Virus record (IMG/VR): IMGVR_UViG_2648501563_000006
Location: 1-37,917 of that record
DNA length: 37,917 nucleotides
Direction: 5' to 3' (one strand)
Origin: a virus
Of the stretch, positions 1,611 to 27,671 are shown one piece after another. The notes under the pieces are model-generated. The model was not told the origin of the DNA and did no database searches. It saw nothing but the letters and a program-made list of their open reading frames with translations. Each line of letters begins with the position of its first letter. The first letter of the stretch is position 1. Both the position numbers and the translations under genes were made by a program.

Positions 1611-4600
1611 ATGCACCAAGACCTTTCACAACAAGCCTATTGTCAATCGGTAGGTACAAACTCGACCAATTATCCTGTCATCGATAAAAGAAATCCAACA
1701 GTAAATGACATATATTATCCTATTGGAAAGTTTTGGATTAATCAGACTGGCCCAAATCAAAGCTTATGGTATCTAAATTCGCTTTCTAATGCTACAGGTA
1801 CACTACAAGCACTTTGGATACCTATTTCTATTGAGACAGTATTAGCCACATTATCAGATACCGGCAATGCAAATATCGTCCCTCCCTCTTTAAGTAGCGC
1901 GAGTCCTCCAGATAATATCCAAATTATTGGTGGAACAGGTATAACTGTTGTAGGAAATGCGTCTAATAATAGTTTAACCATTACAAATACTTCTGGAGCT
2001 GCTGAGACACTAACCGGTAACGATGGTGTTGCCGTATCCGCTTCGGGTGGAACTATTCAAACTCTTGGTAATGTTGTTGCAAGCGGAACACATTCGGGAT
2101 ATCCTCTATACACATTCAATCCATCTAGTAATATTGAACAATGGGATATTCAAGTTGCATCTGCAATATCATCGACAAATATTGATTTAACCGGATTAGC
2201 AGCATTCAACAATACTCAGTTCGCCGTAGATTCTAATGGTTTTGTAACTTTGTACGGTGGTTCCGGTGCTCCGACATTGGGTATTACTCCAAATGCGCAT
2301 ACATCACCCGGCACTTCTCCTGTAGTACCAAATGCAAGTGGGGACATAATTATAGAAGGTGGAGCTACTTTTGCCACCGGAACACAAGCCAATCCAATAA
2401 GAACCAATTCTCTTGCTGCTAATACTATAGATCTACAAATACAATTAGCTGGTTCCCATGCAGCCACATCCACAGCAAATGATTTTGGTGTAGCTCAATT
2501 TGACTCTAATTCATTTGGTGTCACTAGTGGTTTTGTCACATTGAAAAATGGTGGCACAACAGGCGCGGTTACTTCTGTTATTGGAGATGATTCTAATCCT
2601 GTTGTACCAGCTTCTGGTGCTATTACTTTTGAAGGAACCGTTGTTGCTAATGCTACTAATGCTAAACCTGTTTATTTTCTTAAAGGCGCAACTAGCACTG
2701 AAGAACTAGAAGTTCAACTCACTACAACTAGCACATCAGGCTCGAAAAACATCAATAATGCCGGTCTAGCCTCATTTGATAGCGCTGCTTTTACAGTAGA
2801 TTCAGCTACTGGTTTCGTATCTCTAGTAGGAGGATCAGCTCCTGCGGTAGAGACATTAACCGGTAATACTGGTGGGGCAATTAGTCCATCATCCGGAAAT
2901 ATTGGAACTGTTGGAACTGGTAGTATCACAATTGTAGGATCTGGACATACTCTTACAACTGAATTAACAGGTTTAACTCAATATGATATTTTAGTTGGAC
3001 AAGGAAGTACAACGATAGGTTTAGTGGTTCCTTCGGCAACATCTGGTGTACCATTAATTTCCCAGGGATCTTCAAGCTATCCGGTATTTGGGACTGCCGT
3101 AGTAGCAGGAGGTGGTACAGGTGCCACAACTCTTACGGGTGTTTTGATCGGTAATGGAACATCTGCTATCACTGGAAATGCGATTACACAATATGATGTC
3201 TTGGTTGGGGGCGCTTCTAATGCTATTACTTCGATTTCACCAAGCACATCTGGATATGTTTTAACATCCAATGGCCCTGGAGAAAATCCGACATTTCAAG
3301 CAGTAGGAGCTTCTTCAATAACTCTTGATGGCGATTCAGGTTCAGCTAGTGGATCTACGATAACGATCAGTGGCGGAACATCAGGATTAACAACTACAGC
3401 TACAATAGCTACAATGGATATTACCGGTACTCTTAACGTATCCCACGGAGGAACGGGAGCTACTACACTTACAGGAGTGCTTACAGGTAATGGCACATCA
3501 GCTATTACAGCCAGTTCTGTCACGCAATACGATGTTTTAGTTGGTGGTGCTTCTAATGCGATTTCATCTGTAGGTCCTGGAACTTCAGGACAAGTATTGC
3601 AATCAGGAGGCGGAAGCGGTAATCCTGCTTATTCAACAGCTACATATCCTTCTAGCACGACAGTGAATCAAATACTTTATTCCTCTTCAAATAATACGAT
3701 TGCGGGTCTCGCAACAGGAAATAATGGTGTTTTAATCACTTCATCGGGTGGCGTTCCTTCTATTCTAGCAGACGGTACCACGGGTCAAGTTCTTACTGCC
3801 ACAACAGGTTCTCCTCCATCTTGGACAAGCATTAGTGTTACTGGGATCAGTACATTGGATGGTGATTCAGGTTCGTGTACCGGTTCAACCGTGACAATAT
3901 CAGGTGGAAGTACTGGTCTCACTACTTCAGCTTCATCCGCTACAATGGATCTAACAGGAACTTTAAATGTTGGACATGGCGGTACAGGTGATACTTCATT
4001 TACAGCTTATAGTGTAATTTGCGGTGGCACTACATCTACAGGTGCTTTACAAAACGTTTCTGGTCTAGGAACTTCCGGTTATGTTCTTACAAGTAATGGA
4101 CCGGGAGAGCTACCTAGTTGGCAGAACGCCGGTGATAATGCCCTCGCAATTACTATGGACGCTGGAACTTCGCCTATATCTCCTTCTTCCGGAGCTTTAG
4201 TATTTACAGGTGCACAAGTTGCTAGTGGTGTCGTAGGAACAAATGTAATACGCACAGATGGTTCTGCATCTAATACTATGACTCTTCAGATACAGAGATC
4301 AACTACAGCAGGATCATCAACTGTATCAGATAATGGAGTTTGTCATTTTAGTAGCACAGAGTTTAGCGTAGATTCTAATGGTTTTGTGACATCAAATAAT
4401 ATTACGCTTGTAGCCGGCACAGGAATAACTTTAAGTCCTAGCACCGGATTAGTTACACTCGGTGGAAGCATCACAATATCTTCAACAGGATCTGCCCTAT
4501 TTAATTACAAGAATGTGAATCATGGTTCCAGCCCTTATACAGTATTATCTACAGATCAATATTTATCTGTAGACTGTTCTGGGGGAACAGTAACATTGGA

Positions 4601-14715: not shown

Positions 14716-14913
14716 ATGAACTCTATCTCAGAAGAGGTTAGAATGACGTTGCTAGAATATATACAGACCACAAAAATTACAATCAAGAAGTTTTCGGATC
14801 AGTTGGGGTATACTCGCACGCATATAAGTAGAGTCATACATAATAAAACAGGTTTATCGAATAAACTTAAGAATCAAATATATATTATAACTAATGGCCA
14901 AGTAAATCTATGA
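14716..14913 (+). CDS. small HTH DNA-binding protein (alternative start 14743, preceded by gagg)
   Basis: ITIKKFSDQLGYTRTHISRVIHNKTG is a canonical HTH. Paralogous in layout to 9337..9576. Confidence 0.6.
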   Translation: MNSISEEVRMTLLEYIQTTKITIKKFSDQLGYTRTHISRVIHNKTGLSNKLKNQIYIITNGQVNL

Positions 14914-16199
14914 CAGCTCCCTTATCTCCCAAACAACTAGAATTCGTGCTCAATAGCACCGCTAAATGGAATCTTGCCCACGGATCTGTTAGAACGGGAA
15001 AGACAATTGGCACATTGTTTGCTTTTCTTCATGCATGTCATAATTGTCCCGATGGTGATATATACATGGTAGGGCACAGTTCTAATACTATTTATGAAAA
15101 TGCTATCAAGTTGATCTTTGATAGTCCTCAGTTTGCCATTTTTAGACCATTCTGCACTTGGTCTCCAGGAAATAGGATTCTCACATTTCAAGACAAGAAG
15201 ATAAAAGCATATGGAGCAGCGGACGAAGGTGCTATAGGTAACTTCCAAGGTAAGACGATGTCTCTTGTTTATTGCGATGAGATTACTTTATATCCACAAT
15301 CTATTATAGAGATGATAGATAGCCGATTGAGTAATACGCATAGCCGTGGATTTGCATCAATGAATCCAACATATCCTGATCATATAGTTAAGAAATGGAT
15401 AGATGCGGGTATGGAAGGAGATAAGAACTATTATTCTCTTCACTTCACACTCGACGATAATCCATTTGTGGATGATGATTATAAAGAAAGACTCAGAAAG
15501 AACACCACAGGGTTATTTTACAAAAGAAACTATCTTGGATTATGGTGTCTAGCTGAAGGCGCTATATTCGACTTTTTTGACCCACAGATACATGTAACTA
15601 AGAACCCTCCTCGAGCAGCTGAATATTGGATTGCTTCCATAGATTATGGGATCTCTAATGCTTTTGCTTGTTTGCTAATTGGCGTATCAACAGGAATGAG
15701 TAATCAAACAGGAAAGAGGCTATGGGTAGAGAAGGAATACTATTGGGATAGTAAAGTTGAGGGAAGGCAGAAACTTAATAGCGAACTAGCTAATGATGTG
15801 GCCGATATGCTCGAACCTTATGCGGTGAGAGCTATATATATAGACCCAAGCGCTTCCTCAATGAAAGTAGAGTTGAGAAGACGAGGAATGCACATCGTTG
15901 ATGCAGACAATGACGTATATAACGGTATAGAAAAGATGTGTAACGAAATGAAAATAGGTAATCTTTATATCCTAAGAGGTTGCAAAAACTTGATTAAAGA
16001 GATTCAGAATTACGTTTGGGACACAAAAAAGAGTAAGATGGGAGAAGATTCGCCTGTGAAAAAAGGAGACCATGCTATCGATGCATTGCGTTATGCAATT
16101 TACACACACAAAGTACAAATCTATAATCCCTTTCAGACAAAACACAATTCTGATGATTACATGAATTCAAGGTTCAATCATGGTACGAGACGCTTTTAG
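14910..16199 (+). CDS. terL: terminase large subunit
   Basis: Walker A GSVRTGKT, Walker B LVYCDEI, and a C-terminal nuclease region (IDYG....., GDHAIDALRYA). Confidence 0.9.
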   Translation: MTAPLSPKQLEFVLNSTAKWNLAHGSVRTGKTIGTLFAFLHACHNCPDGDIYMVGHSSNTIYENAIKLIFDSPQFAIFRPFCTWSPGNRILTFQDKKIKAYGAADEGAIGNFQGKTMSLVYCDEITLYPQSIIEMIDSRLSNTHSRGFASMNPTYPDHIVKKWIDAGMEGDKNYYSLHFTLDDNPFVDDDYKERLRKNTTGLFYKRNYLGLWCLAEGAIFDFFDPQIHVTKNPPRAAEYWIASIDYGISNAFACLLIGVSTGMSNQTGKRLWVEKEYYWDSKVEGRQKLNSELANDVADMLEPYAVRAIYIDPSASSMKVELRRRGMHIVDADNDVYNGIEKMCNEMKIGNLYILRGCKNLIKEIQNYVWDTKKSKMGEDSPVKKGDHAIDALRYAIYTHKVQIYNPFQTKHNSDDYMNSRFNHGTRRF

Positions 16200-23029: not shown

Positions 23030-23226
23030 GCAAGTTTATAAAAGAATATGAAGATGTTGACAATATATTATGGAATAATATTAAATTAAATTACGCTAGT
23101 CCGGCGTCAAGGATATTCGCGTTAGTGTGCTATCGCAAGCACTTTCTTACGATGTGATCGAAAACGAACGTATGTTAAGCTCGTTCACTGATCATCATAT
23201 CATATTAACCTCAATATGAGGTTTAC

Positions 23227-23457
23227 ATGTCTATTACTACTACAGGGAATTTAGGCCCTCTTATACTCCAGTCGCTCGCGCCTGCCATGTTATACGTGCC
23301 TACCCCTACTATGAACTATATTACCGTCTGCGATAAGGTCTCCATGCCTGCTAACGGCGGTACTACATGCAGATTTATGAGGCCAAGAGCCTTACAGCCC
23401 CCTACGATTCAATTGGGCAATGCCGGTATTGATCCCCCAGCCCAAGTTCCTCAGCGT
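23227..23457 (+). CDS. capsid exon 1 (77 codons)
   Basis: ATG follows gaggtttac. The exon ends CAGCGU, which pairs with the intron guide GCGCUG. Confidence 0.8.
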
Positions 23458-26400
23458 AAACGAGTTGCGCTGAATAAATCTTCGATAATTGACTTGGAAC
23501 TCCTCGCTGCTTAGCAGACGGAAGACAAGGCGCAAGCAGGGAAACCGTGCAGCGTGAACGACCAAATTCGAAGACCTAGAAATAGGATGCGATGGCCTGA
23601 ACATTATGGAAACATAATGAGGAAGAGCGAAATATCTTCCCGCCTCTTAATGAGGTCAAAAAAGTAACAGTATGGACATAATTGATGCCCAAATGGCGTT
23701 TTTCGGAACAGGTGAAGAAGTTTACTCGTATTTATTAGCTGCATAATTAACTTGATCTTTATATATAACCCATGTTAAAATCCTTGGAAAAAGGAGGATA
23801 ATATGGAAAGAAGTAAGGAAGAATTAATGTACTCATACGCTGCTGGAGCAATCGATGGAGATGGAGCAATTTATCTTGTTAAGGAAATTAGGTTATATAT
23901 TCCTTTTGTCCAGCTTGCAAAAAAATTTGGCATTTTAATTTCATCATTTAAAAATGATTTTGGTGGAATAGTGGGATCTATCAAACCTAGATTACCTCAC
24001 CATGCGCCATTACATTATTGGAGATTGAAAGGAGCTGAAAACTGTAAAGAATTCCTTGGGAATGTTTCACAATTTTTGGTTTACAAAAAAGAAAGGGCAG
24101 AAATTTTATTAGATTACATTGATAAAAATCCATTTGTAAGAGGAAAAACTCTAACTCAAGATCAGATGATTGAGAGAGAAAAGTATCATGTGAAAATAGC
24201 GTCATTGAATGATGAAGCTTATCTTCAAAATATTTCAATGGTTTCAAAAACATATGTTAACAACGAAGATCCAGCTTTTTGGGCATATGTCGCTGGCATA
24301 ATGGATACTGACGGATCTTTTTCTGTAAAGAGACAGAAAGGACATTCCGAAACAAAAAATCTTAGGTATATCCCCTGTATTCAAATATCAATGGCTTCTT
24401 TGGATGTAATAAATCACATAAGAAGGAATTGTGTTTATGGAACCGTGTGCGTAGTAAAAAACAAAAGTTGCTCACGTGGTTTTCATTATGCATGGAGTAT
24501 AGGTAAGAAACAGGATTCATCGGAATTTATAGAAAAAATACTTCCTTATTTAAAAGAAAAAAAAGAACAAGCTTCGATTGTCTTAGAGTTTTGCAAAAAT
24601 AGTGAAAATACTAAATATTGCAAAGCAGGAATTCCTAAAGAAGAATTGGAATTTAGAGAATCGTGTTATCAAAGAATTGTGGCTTTAAATAAAAGTGGCA
24701 GCCTGTTGTGTGATTCTCAATAAGGTTAGAGAACACATAAAACTTGGCTATATGCTGGAAACTCCTAAAACTATCGGTACCAAAGTGTGAAAATCTGATA
24801 GATGTAACAATGGACAATCAGCAGGGAAGGCTCGAAAGAGAACCCTCAACGACTACACGCCAAGGGCTCTGTAACCGCAGAAGTCAAGATATAGTCTGAA
24901 CAATGGTGAGAGCCATTGAGAGAGGAATAACAAGACTCTCCGCCATTTATAAATGGTCATAAAAGTAACAGATAGTGCATTATAAATGAACAAGTGATCC
25001 TTCAAGATCAAGAGGGGGTCCTAGCATGGGTCTCCGAACGTCTGGCCGTTTCGATGAGACAAGCCGAGGATTGAGATTAAGTCCTCGATAAACCTTTGGT
25101 AATTGACTTGGAAGGCTAAGGTAAATGAAAACAGAAATGGCAATGTTACCAAACGGTAACTATGAACAAATAATAAGTCCTATTCAGCATGCATGTATTT
25201 TTGAAAATTGGTGTTGTGTTGAATATAGATGGAAAAAAGGAAAACTTCTTCTTAAAATAGAAGATGGAGATCCTTACGAAGATGGTTATAGTTCTGAAGT
25301 GAATGTAAAATATTGTCCATTTTGTGGTTATAAACCAGAATGATTTTACTATGCCGACAAGGCGCAAGCAATGTAAAGCTGTTTTACATGTGCAGCGTGA
25401 GAGACTAAACCCAGAGGCCCGAAAGGGATGCGATAGTCCGAACATTCCAACGAAAGGGAATGAGTCTAGCAGAAATGACTAGACCATGTCGAAAGACAGG
25501 GTAACAGATTGTTAATTTTGCGCGATTACATTGTTTCAGCAGCCTCTACGTTAAATGCAGGTGGCGGCTCCAACGGTAGAATTGTTGCCGTTGTAAAATC
25601 AGACCTGATTGAGGTGGAACTCCTCGCTGCGTAAGCAGACGGACAACACTGCGGAACCCGAAAGGGACCGTAAACGAGTAAGGCGGTCAGACACTCGAAA
25701 GAGTGAAGCGGTACTCTAAACTCTATGGAGACATAGAGAGGTGGCAGAAATGATCACCCGCCTAGAAATAGGTCACAAAAGTAATAGAATGGATAACCCT
25801 ACTAATCTAGGTGTGAGCGACTTTTCATTAGTTGCAACCACTCTAGATACGAACAATAAAATGAGTGTTGTTCTAAAACCTTCTCTGATTGACTTGGAGT
25901 GCCTGGCTGCTTAAGCAGAGGTTAACAAGGCGGAAGGCGTAAGCCACCGTGAGAGACTAAGTGAGAGGGACGCGAAAGCGTATGCGATAGTCCGAACCAT
26001 GACTATATATAAAATCATGGAAGTTAGCAGAAATGACTAACTCGCTCGAAAGAGTGGTAACAGAATGGCTTATAAATTTATGAGCGGTATAGAAGGGATG
26101 GATAGATTTGGTACAGGCCCTGTACGTTCTGCATATTTTATGCTTACGTCAACTGAACTACAAAGTGACTTTGATTCTTTGGTAGGTCAAGGTTTCTTAA
26201 GCCAGTGGAACTATCCGACGCCAAATGCATCTGCACTGCCTTCTGAGTATGGATCTGTGTTTAACATCAGAATCCTGACAAGCTCTGAAGCTCCAGTTGC
26301 ACGTGGAACAAGTGCTAATGGTCAAGATGTCTATTACAGTACTGTATTAGGCAAACAAGCCATTACACATATTAACCAAGATGGTTATTCAATGAATTTG

Positions 26401-26541
26401 ATATATAGAGACCCATACTACAGTGGTATGTTGGCCCAAAACGCTACTCTTGCAGTTAAGTTTGCGCAAGCGCAGGCTATTACGCAAGATACAGCCATTA
26501 GAAACATTCTAAGTACCAGACTTTCGTCTGTAAACTATTAA
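23227..26541 (+). CDS. major capsid protein gene, split: join(23227..23457, 23675..23713, 24976..25071, 25512..25577, 25792..25857, 26068..26541), 323 codons
   Basis: The conceptual splice gives ...AQVPQR|DIIDAQMAFFGTG|CIINEQVILQDQEGVLAWVSERLAVSMRQAED|LILRDYIVSAASTLNAGGGSNG|DNPTNLGVSDFSLVATTLDTNN|AYKFMSGIEGMDRFGTGPV.... It reads like an HK97-fold capsid protein (N4 gp56-like by recollection). Placed after portal and scaffold. Confidence 0.8.
23458..23674 (+). mobile_element. group I intron I-1 (217 nt, no ORF)
   Basis: P1 is CAGCGU (23452-57) with GCGCUG (23467-72) and a U:G wobble at the cleavage site. GNRA-capped hairpins. P7-like GACCA (23560-64) / UGGCC (23593-97), with one mismatch. Ends gtaacagtatG. 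Confidence 0.8.
23675..23713 (+). CDS. capsid exon 2 (13 codons)
   Basis: DIIDAQMAFFGTG, in frame between I-1 and I-2. Confidence 0.65.
23714..24975 (+). mobile_element. group I intron I-2 (1262 nt) carrying a LAGLIDADG ORF; 5' boundary tentative
   Basis: The core lies after the ORF: a CTC-GAAA-GAG hairpin, then CAACGACUACACG (P7 5' strand, 24851-55) and AAGAUAUAGUCUGAAC (P7 3' strand, 24892-96). The three 3' hairpins and the gtaacagataG end are shared with the other introns. The 3' exon cannot extend upstream of 24976 because of a TAG. Confidence 0.7.
23803..24723 (+). CDS. double-motif LAGLIDADG homing endonuclease (306 aa), intron-encoded
   Basis: aaggagg SD. Motifs YAAGAIDGDGAIYL and YVAGIMDTDGSFSV. 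Confidence 0.9.
   Translation: MERSKEELMYSYAAGAIDGDGAIYLVKEIRLYIPFVQLAKKFGILISSFKNDFGGIVGSIKPRLPHHAPLHYWRLKGAENCKEFLGNVSQFLVYKKERAEILLDYIDKNPFVRGKTLTQDQMIEREKYHVKIASLNDEAYLQNISMVSKTYVNNEDPAFWAYVAGIMDTDGSFSVKRQKGHSETKNLRYIPCIQISMASLDVINHIRRNCVYGTVCVVKNKSCSRGFHYAWSIGKKQDSSEFIEKILPYLKEKKEQASIVLEFCKNSENTKYCKAGIPKEELEFRESCYQRIVALNKSGSLLCDSQ
24976..25071 (+). CDS. capsid exon 3 (32 codons)
   Basis: CIINEQVILQDQEGVLAWVSERLAVSMRQAED. Stops occur in all frames just upstream, and the frame ends in TGA just past the splice site. Confidence 0.75.
25072..25511 (+). mobile_element. group I intron I-3 (440 nt) carrying a 72-codon ORF in a hairpin loop
   Basis: P1 is CGAGGAU (25065-71) with GUCCUCG (25081-87). 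P7 is GACUA (25403-07) / UAGUC (25434-38). P8 is CCC-GAAA-GGG. Ends gtaacagattG. Confidence 0.8.
25125..25343 (+). CDS. intron-encoded 72-aa Cys-rich protein of unknown family
   Basis: taaggtaa precedes the ATG. Ends ...VKYCPFCGYKPE (zinc-ribbon-like CxxC), with additional Cys/His upstream. No GIY-YIG, HNH or LAGLIDADG motif seen. Confidence 0.5.
   Translation: MKTEMAMLPNGNYEQIISPIQHACIFENWCCVEYRWKKGKLLLKIEDGDPYEDGYSSEVNVKYCPFCGYKPE
25512..25577 (+). CDS. capsid exon 4 (22 codons)
   Basis: LILRDYIVSAASTLNAGGGSNG; the only open frame here. Confidence 0.75.
25578..25791 (+). mobile_element. group I intron I-4 (214 nt, no ORF)
   Basis: P1 is CAACGGU (25571-77) with GCCGUUG (25587-93). Hairpins CGG-AA-CCC-GAAA-GGG-A-CCG and CACUC-GAAA-GAGUG. 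P7 is GAGUA/UACUC, compensatory relative to GACUA/UAGUC in the other copies. Ends gtaatagaatG. Confidence 0.8.
25792..25857 (+). CDS. capsid exon 5 (22 codons)
   Basis: DNPTNLGVSDFSLVATTLDTNN; the only open frame here. Confidence 0.75.
25858..26067 (+). mobile_element. group I intron I-5 (210 nt, no ORF)
   Basis: P1 is GAACAAU (25851-57) with GUUGUUC (25867-73). Hairpins CGG-AA-GGC-GUAA-GCC-A-CCG and ACGC-GAAA-GCGU. Core strands GAGAGACUAAG and GCGAUAGUCCGAAC. Ends gtaacagaatG. Confidence 0.8.
26068..26541 (+). CDS. capsid exon 6 (157 codons plus stop)
   Basis: AYKFMSGIEGMDRFGTGPVRSAYFML...GSVFNIRILTSSEAPV...VYYSTVLGKQA.... The track ORF start 26065 (ATG) is the last 3 nt of intron I-5 in my model. 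Confidence 0.8.
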   Translation, partial: AYKFMSGIEGMDRFGTGPVRSAYFMLTSTELQSDFDSLVGQGFLSQWNYPTPNASALPSEYGSVFNIRILTSSEAPVARGTSANGQDVYYSTVLGKQAITHINQDGYSMNLIYRDPYYSGMLAQNATLAVKFAQAQAITQDTAIRNILSTRLSSVNY

Positions 26542-26552
26542 GGAGGTTTATT

Positions 26553-27671
26553 ATGGCTGAATATTCTCGCTTAATGAGCGGAAGCGTTTTGTCTAATGGT
26601 GGACAAACAGCAGTGATATGCCCTTCAATACCTAACTATATCGAAATTACCAATACGACTGAGATCACAGCTAATAGCGGTGGTGTTACTCGTGCTTGGT
26701 GGATGACCGATATGGGACAAAGTGCTGCAGCCTATATTACTACTACATCGGGTACAGATGCATCTTTGTATACAACAACCAACGGTTTTACTACTATTCA
26801 AGCAGCTTTGGCGCTTCAATATGGTGCAACCGTATTTTTGGGTGCTTCTGGTGTGGTGGCAAAAACATCGCATACAGTAATTACTGTAACCACGACAGCA
26901 GCTCATGGTTTAGTAACAGGTAACTGGATTCAATTCCAAAACCTTTACCAAACATCATCTACAGGTATGCAGCAAATTGCCGGATTGCCTTTTATGGTGA
27001 CGGTAACAGATAGTACTCATTTTACTGTATATTGGGATGGTAACGAATCCAATTATACCGCATTGAGTTCCGGTGGTTTGAATACCAATGCGAGCTTTAA
27101 GCAAATACTTTATCCAGTGCTCTATGCACCAGGTAATGCTTATATTGCAGCTGTATCTACAACTACAGGTGTAACTACTGTGACAACTACTGCTCCGCAT
27201 AATTTTAAAGTAGGGCAAGAGATTGGTTTTAGAATTCCTTCAGTATGGGGACCTTCTCAATTGAATGAATTACCTGATAACACAATCCCAGGAAGTCCAC
27301 AGTATTTCTATGTAGCGACTGTGCCAACAAGCACGACATTCACATTCTTGAATGCTCCTGCTTATACTGCGTTTACATCTAATCAGACTTTTGCAAGCTT
27401 TGTGGGCTTAAAATTCCCTCAAGTTTTTGCAACCGGCGATGTAAACAGTGGTGGCTATCCTTACACAGGTTATGCATTGTATCCTTCACCAACCGTATTT
27501 AATGGTTACACTTCCAGCACAACTGTTGGTGTGAGCACTATTAATGGTCCCGGTATCCAAGGGGGATATATTAATGCTACTTGGCAGGGATTTGTGATAG
27601 GTTCAACCATTGCGGGTAGTGCAAATGACCAGATATACTGGCGCGCTTATACCCATGATTTGAATACGTAA
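26553..27671 (+). CDS. virion structural protein (372 aa); capsid decoration or head-fibre candidate
   Basis: taaggagg SD. Sits directly after the capsid gene. Two copies of the module TAAHGLVTGNWIQF... / TAPHNFKVGQEIGF.... Confidence 0.55.
   Translation: MAEYSRLMSGSVLSNGGQTAVICPSIPNYIEITNTTEITANSGGVTRAWWMTDMGQSAAAYITTTSGTDASLYTTTNGFTTIQAALALQYGATVFLGASGVVAKTSHTVITVTTTAAHGLVTGNWIQFQNLYQTSSTGMQQIAGLPFMVTVTDSTHFTVYWDGNESNYTALSSGGLNTNASFKQILYPVLYAPGNAYIAAVSTTTGVTTVTTTAPHNFKVGQEIGFRIPSVWGPSQLNELPDNTIPGSPQYFYVATVPTSTTFTFLNAPAYTAFTSNQTFASFVGLKFPQVFATGDVNSGGYPYTGYALYPSPTVFNGYTSSTTVGVSTINGPGIQGGYINATWQGFVIGSTIAGSANDQIYWRAYTHDLNT

Follow-up and report, generated by a model that had tools for sequence, protein, structure and literature searches.

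A podophage-like major capsid gene with five predicted group I introns, four of them members of a compact and widely dispersed family

The viral DNA stretch analyzed here (the window: 37,917 nucleotides (nt), positions 1 to 37,917 of IMG/VR record IMGVR_UViG_2648501563_000006) carries a major capsid gene that is interrupted five times. Comparison with homologs confirmed positions 23227–26541 as a major capsid gene of the N4-gp56 type, with six phase-0 exons and five predicted group I introns, I-1 to I-5, the latter making up ~71% of the locus. Based on their common fold, their guides and their colinearity, I-1, I-3, I-4, and I-5 are assigned to one family of group I introns, and we infer their splicing from these features; I-2 is more conventional and encodes a predicted homing endonuclease. 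The reading that we consider probable is that of a capsid gene with five self-splicing introns, the compact copies of which were acquired independently from a mobile pool, where both splicing and acquisition route are deduced from sequence.

The open frames on both sides of the five insertions were joined into a provisional splice of 333 amino acids (aa). This product matches the PHROG major head family phrog_1357 in one single stretch, along with hundreds of uninterrupted metagenomic homologs of ~322 aa, some of which are labeled N4-gp56 family major capsid protein by the Joint Genome Institute (JGI). Alignment of eight uninterrupted homologs, 86–93% identical, fixed the exon boundaries independently and showed that all five junctions are exactly colinear with them. 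The exons, all on the plus strand like the other features of this gene, are exon 1 (23227–23457, 77 codons, 3′ end CAGCGU), exon 2 (23675–23713, 13 codons, DIIDAQMAFFGTG, 3′ end AACAGGU, delimited by intronless homologs), exon 3 (24976–25071, 32 codons), exon 4 (25512–25577, 22 codons), exon 5 (25792–25857, 22 codons), and exon 6 (26068–26541, 157 codons plus stop). Judged against the intronless homologs, removal of the introns joins these exons exactly, yielding a product of 323 aa with the corrected junctions; I-1, I-3, I-4, and I-5 all terminate in G. Translation continued past exon 1 into I-1, or past exon 2 into I-2, soon meets a stop codon, so that these insertions are not inteins, and the two intron open reading frames (ORFs) contain no intein domains. 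In ten contigs recovered from samples in ENA and Logan, the capsid region is 99.9–100% identical; those of sufficient length carry all five introns, and this identical arrangement argues against both an assembly artifact and an isolated defective molecule. Searches of deposited phage genomes with the provisional 333-aa capsid sequence by tblastn returned no match, and blastn returned short intron-core matches only.

The four compact introns share a group I fold of ~210 nt that lacks P2, in which the guide is directly followed by a UAAAAYC joiner and then by P3. A previous sequence-only reading of this DNA had listed a set of colinear elements, all of which were located where it had placed them. 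The loop of 9 nt, the guide of 7 nt, and the joiner (A)UAAAYC read as described, and the AUUGASKUGGA box (23488, 25102, 25608, and 25888) follows the intron start by exactly 30 nt in all four copies, which begin at 23458, 25072, 25578, and 25858. The GCUGC/GCAG hairpin is found in I-1, I-4, and I-5, the loop CAGAAAUGA in I-3, I-4, and I-5, and the P7 and P8 variants are those quoted. One element was described too broadly: the hairpin CGG-AA-NNN-GNRA-NNN-A-CCG fits I-4 and I-5, whereas P6 of I-1 and I-3 reads CGC-AA-GCA...UGC-A-GCG. All five introns close with GUAAYAGNNNG (ends at 23674, 24975, 25511, 25791, and 26067), a motif with a single further match in the window at 27003, attributable to chance.

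Covariation supports this fold very strongly. We built a structural alignment of 11 members, comprising the window copies and IMG/VR relatives, segment by segment, with hairpin parts fitted by hand and long-range helices placed at fixed offsets from conserved anchors; MAFFT left it unchanged. The tested structure includes P1, P3, P4, P6, P6a, P7 (as a pseudoknot), P8, P9, P9.1, and P9.2 with 45 pairs in total. Standard pairs occupy 98.2% of the 495 cells of this hand alignment, whereas shuffled controls reach 65.7% and slid partners no more than 44.6%, and both members change in 39 of the 45 pairs. Taken by themselves, the four window copies pair in 176 of 180 cells and show both-sided changes at 31 of 45 pairs, so the compensatory helix changes claimed by the sequence-only reading are borne out. 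Three checks independent of the hand alignment point in the same direction. RNAalifold, applied to a plain MAFFT alignment without fitting, retrieves P4, P6, P7, and the base of P5, and in a sequence-only profile hidden Markov model (HMM) alignment of 92 distinct members P3, P4, P6, and P7 are paired in 93–100%, with several pair types each. A covariance model (CM) built from the seed identified 118 members in other contigs, in which 96.7% of cells pair (66.9% shuffled) and both-sided changes occur at 41 of 45 pairs. The first P7 pair, which binds guanosine, is G-C in 115/115 members of this CM alignment, and in some family members a nucleotide is bulged after it. No further family copy was found elsewhere in the window, either by the family HMM or by the CM with filters off. 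The compact family may belong to a group I subgroup that has already been described.

Each compact intron is addressed to its own site by its guide. In all four copies P1 comprises 7 base pairs (bp) with the upstream exon and is closed by a U.G wobble at the splice site. As the sequence-only reading had claimed, every guide matches its own exon: the pairing matrix of guides and exons gives 7/7 on the diagonal and 2–6/7 off the diagonal. This property extends to the family, as the splice-site pair is U.G in 96/112 members of the CM alignment from other contigs, and a perfect 7/7 P1 is present in 110 of 157 copies, the modal loop length being 9 nt. The 9-nt 5′ “P1 loop” in turn forms P10 with the beginning of the downstream exon, in runs of 3, 9, 5, and 6 bp in I-1, I-3, I-4, and I-5, respectively. 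P10 is enriched family-wide, with a mean run of 2.39 compared with 1.15 in shuffled sequences, and none of 500 shuffles reaches the observed mean.

The introns I-1, I-4, and I-5 are members of this compact family. I-1 (23458–23674, 217 nt; nhmmer 146 bits, CM 150.9 bits, and pair counts) contains the P10 guide loop at 23458–23466, the P1 guide GCGCUGA at 23467–23473, the P4 box at 23488–23498, P7 formed by GACCA (23560–23564) and UGGCC (23593–23597), and its terminal G at 23674. I-4 (25578–25791, 214 nt), identified by nhmmer, CM, and pair counts, has the P1 guide GCCGUUG at 25587–25593 and P7 formed by GAGUA (25676–25680) and UACUC (25712–25716). I-5 (25858–26067, 210 nt), identified by the same three approaches, has the P1 guide GUUGUUC at 25867–25873 and P7 formed by GACUA (25955–25959) and UAGUC (25988–25992).

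I-3 (25072–25511, 440 nt) is the compact copy with an ORF in its P5 loop and is recognized in two parts by nhmmer and with 78.7 and 19.7 bits by the CM. Its P10 guide (25072–25080) pairs over 9 bp with exon 4; the P1 guide GUCCUCG follows at 25081–25087, and P7 is formed by 25403–25407 and 25434–25438. The ORF (25125–25343) encodes 72 aa with a C-terminal CPFCG motif and is not a recognizable endonuclease, as it yielded weak matches to DUF6980 and phrog_4030 only and no relative in the PDB. Free-standing homologs with 53–72% identity exist outside the capsid gene in seven related phages (L079 at 3591–3806, L038, L041, L006, L005, L040, and L073); five or six of these homologs lie no more than ~1 kb upstream of the capsid gene, and the one in L073 lies 3.2 kb upstream. 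Hence, the I-3 ORF appears to be an ordinary small late gene that moved into, or out of, the intron.

I-2 deviates from this scheme. Its extent was corrected relative to the sequence-only reading: exon 2 ends at 23713, and I-2 spans 23714–24975 (1262 nt), as supported by Rfam model RF00028, nhmmer, the CM, and the guide. A guide, which that reading could not assign, was located at 24701–24707 (GCCUGUU) and pairs 7/7 with the exon end AACAGGU; this position implies a P1 loop of ~990 nt that holds the endonuclease gene. RF00028 matches I-2 at 24676–24918 with 76.9 bits (threshold 50), and the terminal G lies at 24975. I-2 has a P2 hairpin, starting at ~24709, and a conventional P4–P6 domain; P7 is formed by GACUA (24851–24855) and UAGUC (24892–24896). 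Its 3′ domain (24839–24974) matches the compact family (nhmmer E 6.5e-11), and the CM aligns to I-2 with 35.7 bits, skipping the P4–P6 block and leaving the extra P2. The parts in agreement with the compact family are limited to the joiner, the position of P3, J8/7-P7, P9–P9.2, and the tail. The claim that one family occupies all five sites therefore stands for the four compact copies and does not extend to I-2, of which only the 3′ half fits; from sequence, I-2 is better described as a relative or hybrid of the compact family than as a fifth copy.

The gene inside I-2 (23803–24723, 306 aa), the 3′ end of which overlaps the guide, is a predicted double-motif LAGLIDADG homing endonuclease gene. 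Its translation contains the two LAGLIDADG-type motifs GAIDGDG and GIMDTDG and matches Pfam LAGLIDADG_1 (PF00961) as well as I-MsoI (E 5e-6) and I-CvuI in the PDB. In line with the sequence-only reading, I-2 is the one intron of the window with a recognizable homing endonuclease. Orthologs of I-2 are present at the same site, capsid residue 90, in L331 and L332 with endonucleases 80–84% identical, and in L331 the ortholog is the only intron within capsid residues 1–298. The occurrence of I-2 orthologs at one capsid residue in other phages, alone in L331, fits endonuclease homing. As a separate observation, a related capsid gene (L080, 3339–3830, minus strand) has an intron in its Val97 codon with a single-motif LAGLIDADG ORF (163 aa, PF00961) placed in the P6 loop and oriented antisense to the intron.

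The compact introns belong to a very large population. One P4–P6 pattern alone detected at least 120 stretches in IMG/VR and at least 120 in GTDB genomes and metagenome-assembled genomes (MAGs), and the family resides in the capsid type of the window, a second capsid type (phrog_283), and in portal, tape-measure, and ribonucleotide reductase genes. Closely related capsid genes offer ~25 insertion sites, each filled in few genomes, and among the 80 closest capsid loci ~70 are free of introns. The I-3 site is also filled in L180, L221, L273, and L332, and targets and guides of I-3 and I-4 recur in distant capsid genes (L159, L162, and L121), the I-4 target CAACGGU and its guide being present in L162 and L121. 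With respect to codon phase, 15 of 21 mapped insertion sites in capsid genes of close relatives lie in phase 0, as do five out of five in the window; this excess may be no more than a consequence of two facts, namely that the exon must end in U and that third codon positions are rich in U.

From these data the following course of events can be proposed. The capsid gene of a podophage with a genome of ~38 kb would be interrupted by five group I introns that self-splice. Within the compact copies, the 9-nt loop at the 5′ end would pair with the start of the downstream exon (P10) and the next 7 nt with the end of the upstream exon (P1), and the conserved core (P3–P8 pseudoknot, P4–P6, P7 with its invariant G-C, P9, P9.1, P9.2, and the terminal G) would excise the intron from late mRNA, which would then encode an intact 323-aa capsid protein. 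I-2, as a more conventional intron, would spread to the same site by endonuclease homing. The compact copies would go back to distinct lineages within a very large pool of mobile introns using many sites in capsid and other phage genes, each probably acquired independently, through recombination with intron-bearing relatives at colonized sites and, occasionally, through guide-directed insertion at a new site. Copies sharing a gene may later have exchanged modules.

Several observations weigh against this proposal. RF00028, searched against 23200–26300 even at E values up to 10, matches I-2 and none of the four compact copies. The exact 323-aa spliced protein is absent from a collection of 15 billion proteins, in which the capsid gene of the window is represented by ORFs of 95 aa and 158 aa, and the exact spliced junction of exons 1, 2, and 3 is absent among metagenome contigs. 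The A:C mismatch in P7 of I-1, already noted in the sequence-only reading, adjoins the guanosine-binding pair at a position that is A-U in 91 of the 92 distinct members, I-1 being the sole exception. Among close relatives, the sites of I-1, I-4 (exact position), and I-5 are filled in the window phage only, and at these sites independent acquisition by recombination is conjectural. Lastly, two rare modules recur: a P5, CTCCTCGCTGC, present in I-1 and I-4 and in only three other loci, and a J8/7-P7 module present in I-3 and I-5 and in four other loci. Such rare modules common to copies in the capsid gene leave room for some within-gene history, and they suggest that neighboring copies exchanged some modules. 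A related pattern is seen in L108 (reverse strand, ~185–890 of the reverse complement), where an intron at capsid residue 88 has its own P4-to-P9.1 region partly duplicated and shares the P5 module CTCCTCGCTGC of I-1 and I-4 with the next intron in its gene, a sign of recombination between copies in one gene. Regarding I-1, contigs of its phage align at 99.9–100% with one or two differences, and since the capsid protein is essential and this genotype recurs in several samples, I-1 is presumably spliced out. Orthologs of I-1 were sought by two patterns: the P8-P7 pattern matched nothing in viral contigs, and the P1-plus-joiner pattern had ten metagenome matches, about the number expected by chance on a rough estimate, none of which was recognized by the family HMM.

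The sequence-only reading had explained the compact copies by multiplication of one intron inside the capsid gene, via reverse splicing or ectopic transposition, followed by guide adaptation and compensated drift of the helices. The single architecture common to the four copies and the rare modules described above speak for such a history. However, the copies are 46–61% identical to each other on aligned positions, and each has many closer relatives (66–82%) in other phage contigs; rather than being mutual nearest relatives, they stand at ranks 19 to 95 out of 95 with respect to each other when the entire alignment is considered. This low mutual identity, together with closer relatives elsewhere, argues against a recent duplication inside the capsid gene. 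Across 17 multi-intron loci, sharing a gene does not significantly raise the similarity of two introns over that of random pairs (0.653 vs 0.634, p = 0.16). Introns more than 90% identical always have the same target, yet below 80% identity, kinship between introns at different sites does not make their targets more similar than the targets of unrelated introns are; the mean is 4/7 differences in every identity bin, and reuse of an unchanged guide therefore fails to account for most of what is seen. The I-3 and I-4 targets, moreover, are filled in distant phages. We accordingly regard intragenic multiplication as an improbable origin of the window copies.

Guide-directed jumping does nevertheless appear to exist within the family. 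Locus L128 contains two introns (3108–3318 and 3641–3846), 327 nt apart in one gene and 93% identical, each of which follows the 7-mer AGACGCT and carries the guide GGCGUCU. Homology between them begins exactly at the 7-mer and ends at the last base of the intron, with no relation otherwise between the flanking exons. Such a pattern is what guide-directed transposition of the reverse-splicing type would be expected to leave, and of the rivals to independent acquisition it favors intragenic multiplication. The mode of movement envisaged by the sequence-only reading can thus be traced in this relative, in contrast to the window gene, where the copies have unrelated targets and the identities given above and show no such mark of recent intragenic transposition.

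A second explanation holds that the introns are old residents of the capsid lineage, inherited vertically and precisely lost from most relatives. It is consistent with the constant target of introns more than 90% identical and with the I-3 and I-4 targets being common to capsid genes only 29–44% identical. The patchy occupancy does not fit: with most of the closest capsid loci intron-free and ~25 alternative sites filled in few genomes each, vertical inheritance would need very many independent precise losses, and below ~80% identity intron similarity tracks neither site nor host gene. We rate this history as unlikely, slightly more so than multiplication within the gene, and independent acquisition from a mobile pool remains the preferred account. 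That the insertions are not introns, but assembly chimeras, inteins, or the scars of a broken pseudogene in a defective phage, could be argued from the missing spliced protein and junction, and is very nearly dismissed by an arrangement identical in the ten ENA and Logan contigs, open phase-0 exons 86–93% identical to intact homologs, and a covarying RNA structure.

Seven close capsid genes additionally carry short insertions of ~32–49 nt at residues 88, 92, or 104. Loci noted for insertions of this type are L080 (3198–3232), L332 (3715–3763), L264, L283, L221, and L213 (capsid residue 92), L137, and L150. A mini-intron of this type is made up solely of a loop, a guide of 7 nt complementary to the upstream exon (in most cases 7/7, including a U.G), a tail of ~16–28 nt, and a terminal G; a catalytic core is lacking in all seven genes. 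Their length is never a multiple of three in the six cases counted, and some include in-frame stops. P1 covaries between alleles, pairing GCUGCGU with GCGCAGC in L264 and GCUGCAU with GUGCAGC in L283 and L221. A full-length intron of the family is also present in all seven genes, a sample that is biased, as most of these loci were fetched by intron pattern. The mini-introns resemble deletion derivatives that continue to be excised, perhaps through the core of a neighbor. One may speculate, with due reserve, that the capsid gene hosts a community of ribozyme transposons, in which guide-directed insertion of autonomous compact introns into abundant late mRNA, as hinted at by the two L128 copies, is combined with trans action on neighbors. 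Trans-acting cores would explain the core-less insertions of relatives and, if real, could allow I-1 with its unique A:C mismatch to be spliced with help from the other four introns. Mini-introns, if spliced, would be non-autonomous group I elements.

In size and core, the compact family resembles the Azoarcus tRNA-Ile intron, an intron of subgroup IC3 with ~205 nt that contains P2 and resides in a tRNA anticodon loop. Both are minimal (~210 nt here), have a P3–P9 core with GNRA tetraloops, and the Azoarcus intron likewise encodes no protein; the present family differs in running from the guide straight to P3, in having P9.1 and P9.2, and in its location in phage mRNAs. In gene context, a closer parallel is orf142 of Staphylococcus phage Twort, a late structural gene in which Landthaler and Shub reportedly described three ORF-less group I introns in 1999. 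Both cases combine several introns in one late structural gene with short internal exons, which raise the possibility of exon skipping. Twort orf142 has three introns compared with five here, and its splicing is said to have been demonstrated experimentally, whereas splicing is predicted here; conversely, the family described here lacks P2, escapes detection by RF00028, and can be traced to ~25 sites of one gene across relatives.

Phage genes with multiple introns are not new, with Twort orf142 and polymerase and terminase genes of Bastillevirinae as examples, and the incompleteness of RF00028 has been noted before (PMC11878797). In crAss-like phages of the Zeta and Delta groups, group I introns divide the major capsid gene into five fragments, and the authors describe an intron density unprecedented in phage genomes from metagenomes (PMC7886860). 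Those introns were recognized by encoded protein domains in genomes of 145–192 kb (PMC7886860), whereas four of the five introns here have no endonuclease, the genome measures ~38 kb, and RNA family and guides are defined; the likeness lies in an intron-dense capsid gene, no link between the two intron sets being established. Introns of capsid and tail genes, with splicing, have also been reported for Cluster J mycobacteriophages (PMC3706429), compared with five introns of a defined, widely dispersed family in the present gene. In ribosomal DNA (rDNA), related group I introns at different sites have been ascribed to reverse splicing on circumstantial grounds (PMC1299323, PMC3984707). The rDNA introns similarly show one lineage at several sites of one gene, with target choice thought to depend on a guide pairing of 4–6 nt. 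The host here is instead a protein-coding phage gene with many more sites per gene length, where most related copies have unrelated targets and L128 displays the identical-7-mer signature directly.

What appears new is a defined, compact, P2-less family missed by the Rfam model, a single gene with five introns and ~25 sites in relatives, and explicit retargeting of P1 and P10. Group I introns without endonucleases are known to reach new sites by a route that is unsettled, and reverse splicing has been described as lacking direct experimental support beyond circumstantial rDNA evidence (PMC3984707). The present family offers a far denser natural data set, with ~25 sites in a single gene of 323 codons, hundreds of copies whose guides can be read, and one clear pair at the same 7-mer, in a small phage genome in which introns could be moved, deleted, or mutated. 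It also constitutes a widespread phage intron class invisible to Rfam-based annotation: at its gathering threshold, RF00028 detects none of ~50 family copies (nhmmer count) in 19 loci (L061...L181) totaling 147 kb. Capsid, portal, and tape-measure genes carrying these introns would therefore be mis-annotated as fragments.

Outside the capsid gene, the window is a podophage-like genome (~38 kb in all), in which a portal of the P22 type, an intact large terminase, RusA, and a YqaJ recombinase are encoded. A split of the terminase gene (14910–16199) had been suspected and was rejected, as Pfam shows its N- and C-terminal domains to be complete. Contigs with close capsid relatives were found binned in MAGs assigned to Patescibacteria, Parachlamydiaceae, Pseudomonadota, Methanobacterium, and Chlamydiia (L213, L221, L264, L268, and L283). 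These are evidently mis-binned phage contigs, and with bins scattered over such unrelated taxa, MAG assignment is uninformative on the host. Several of the MAGs holding capsid relatives come from bog, fen, and palsa samples.

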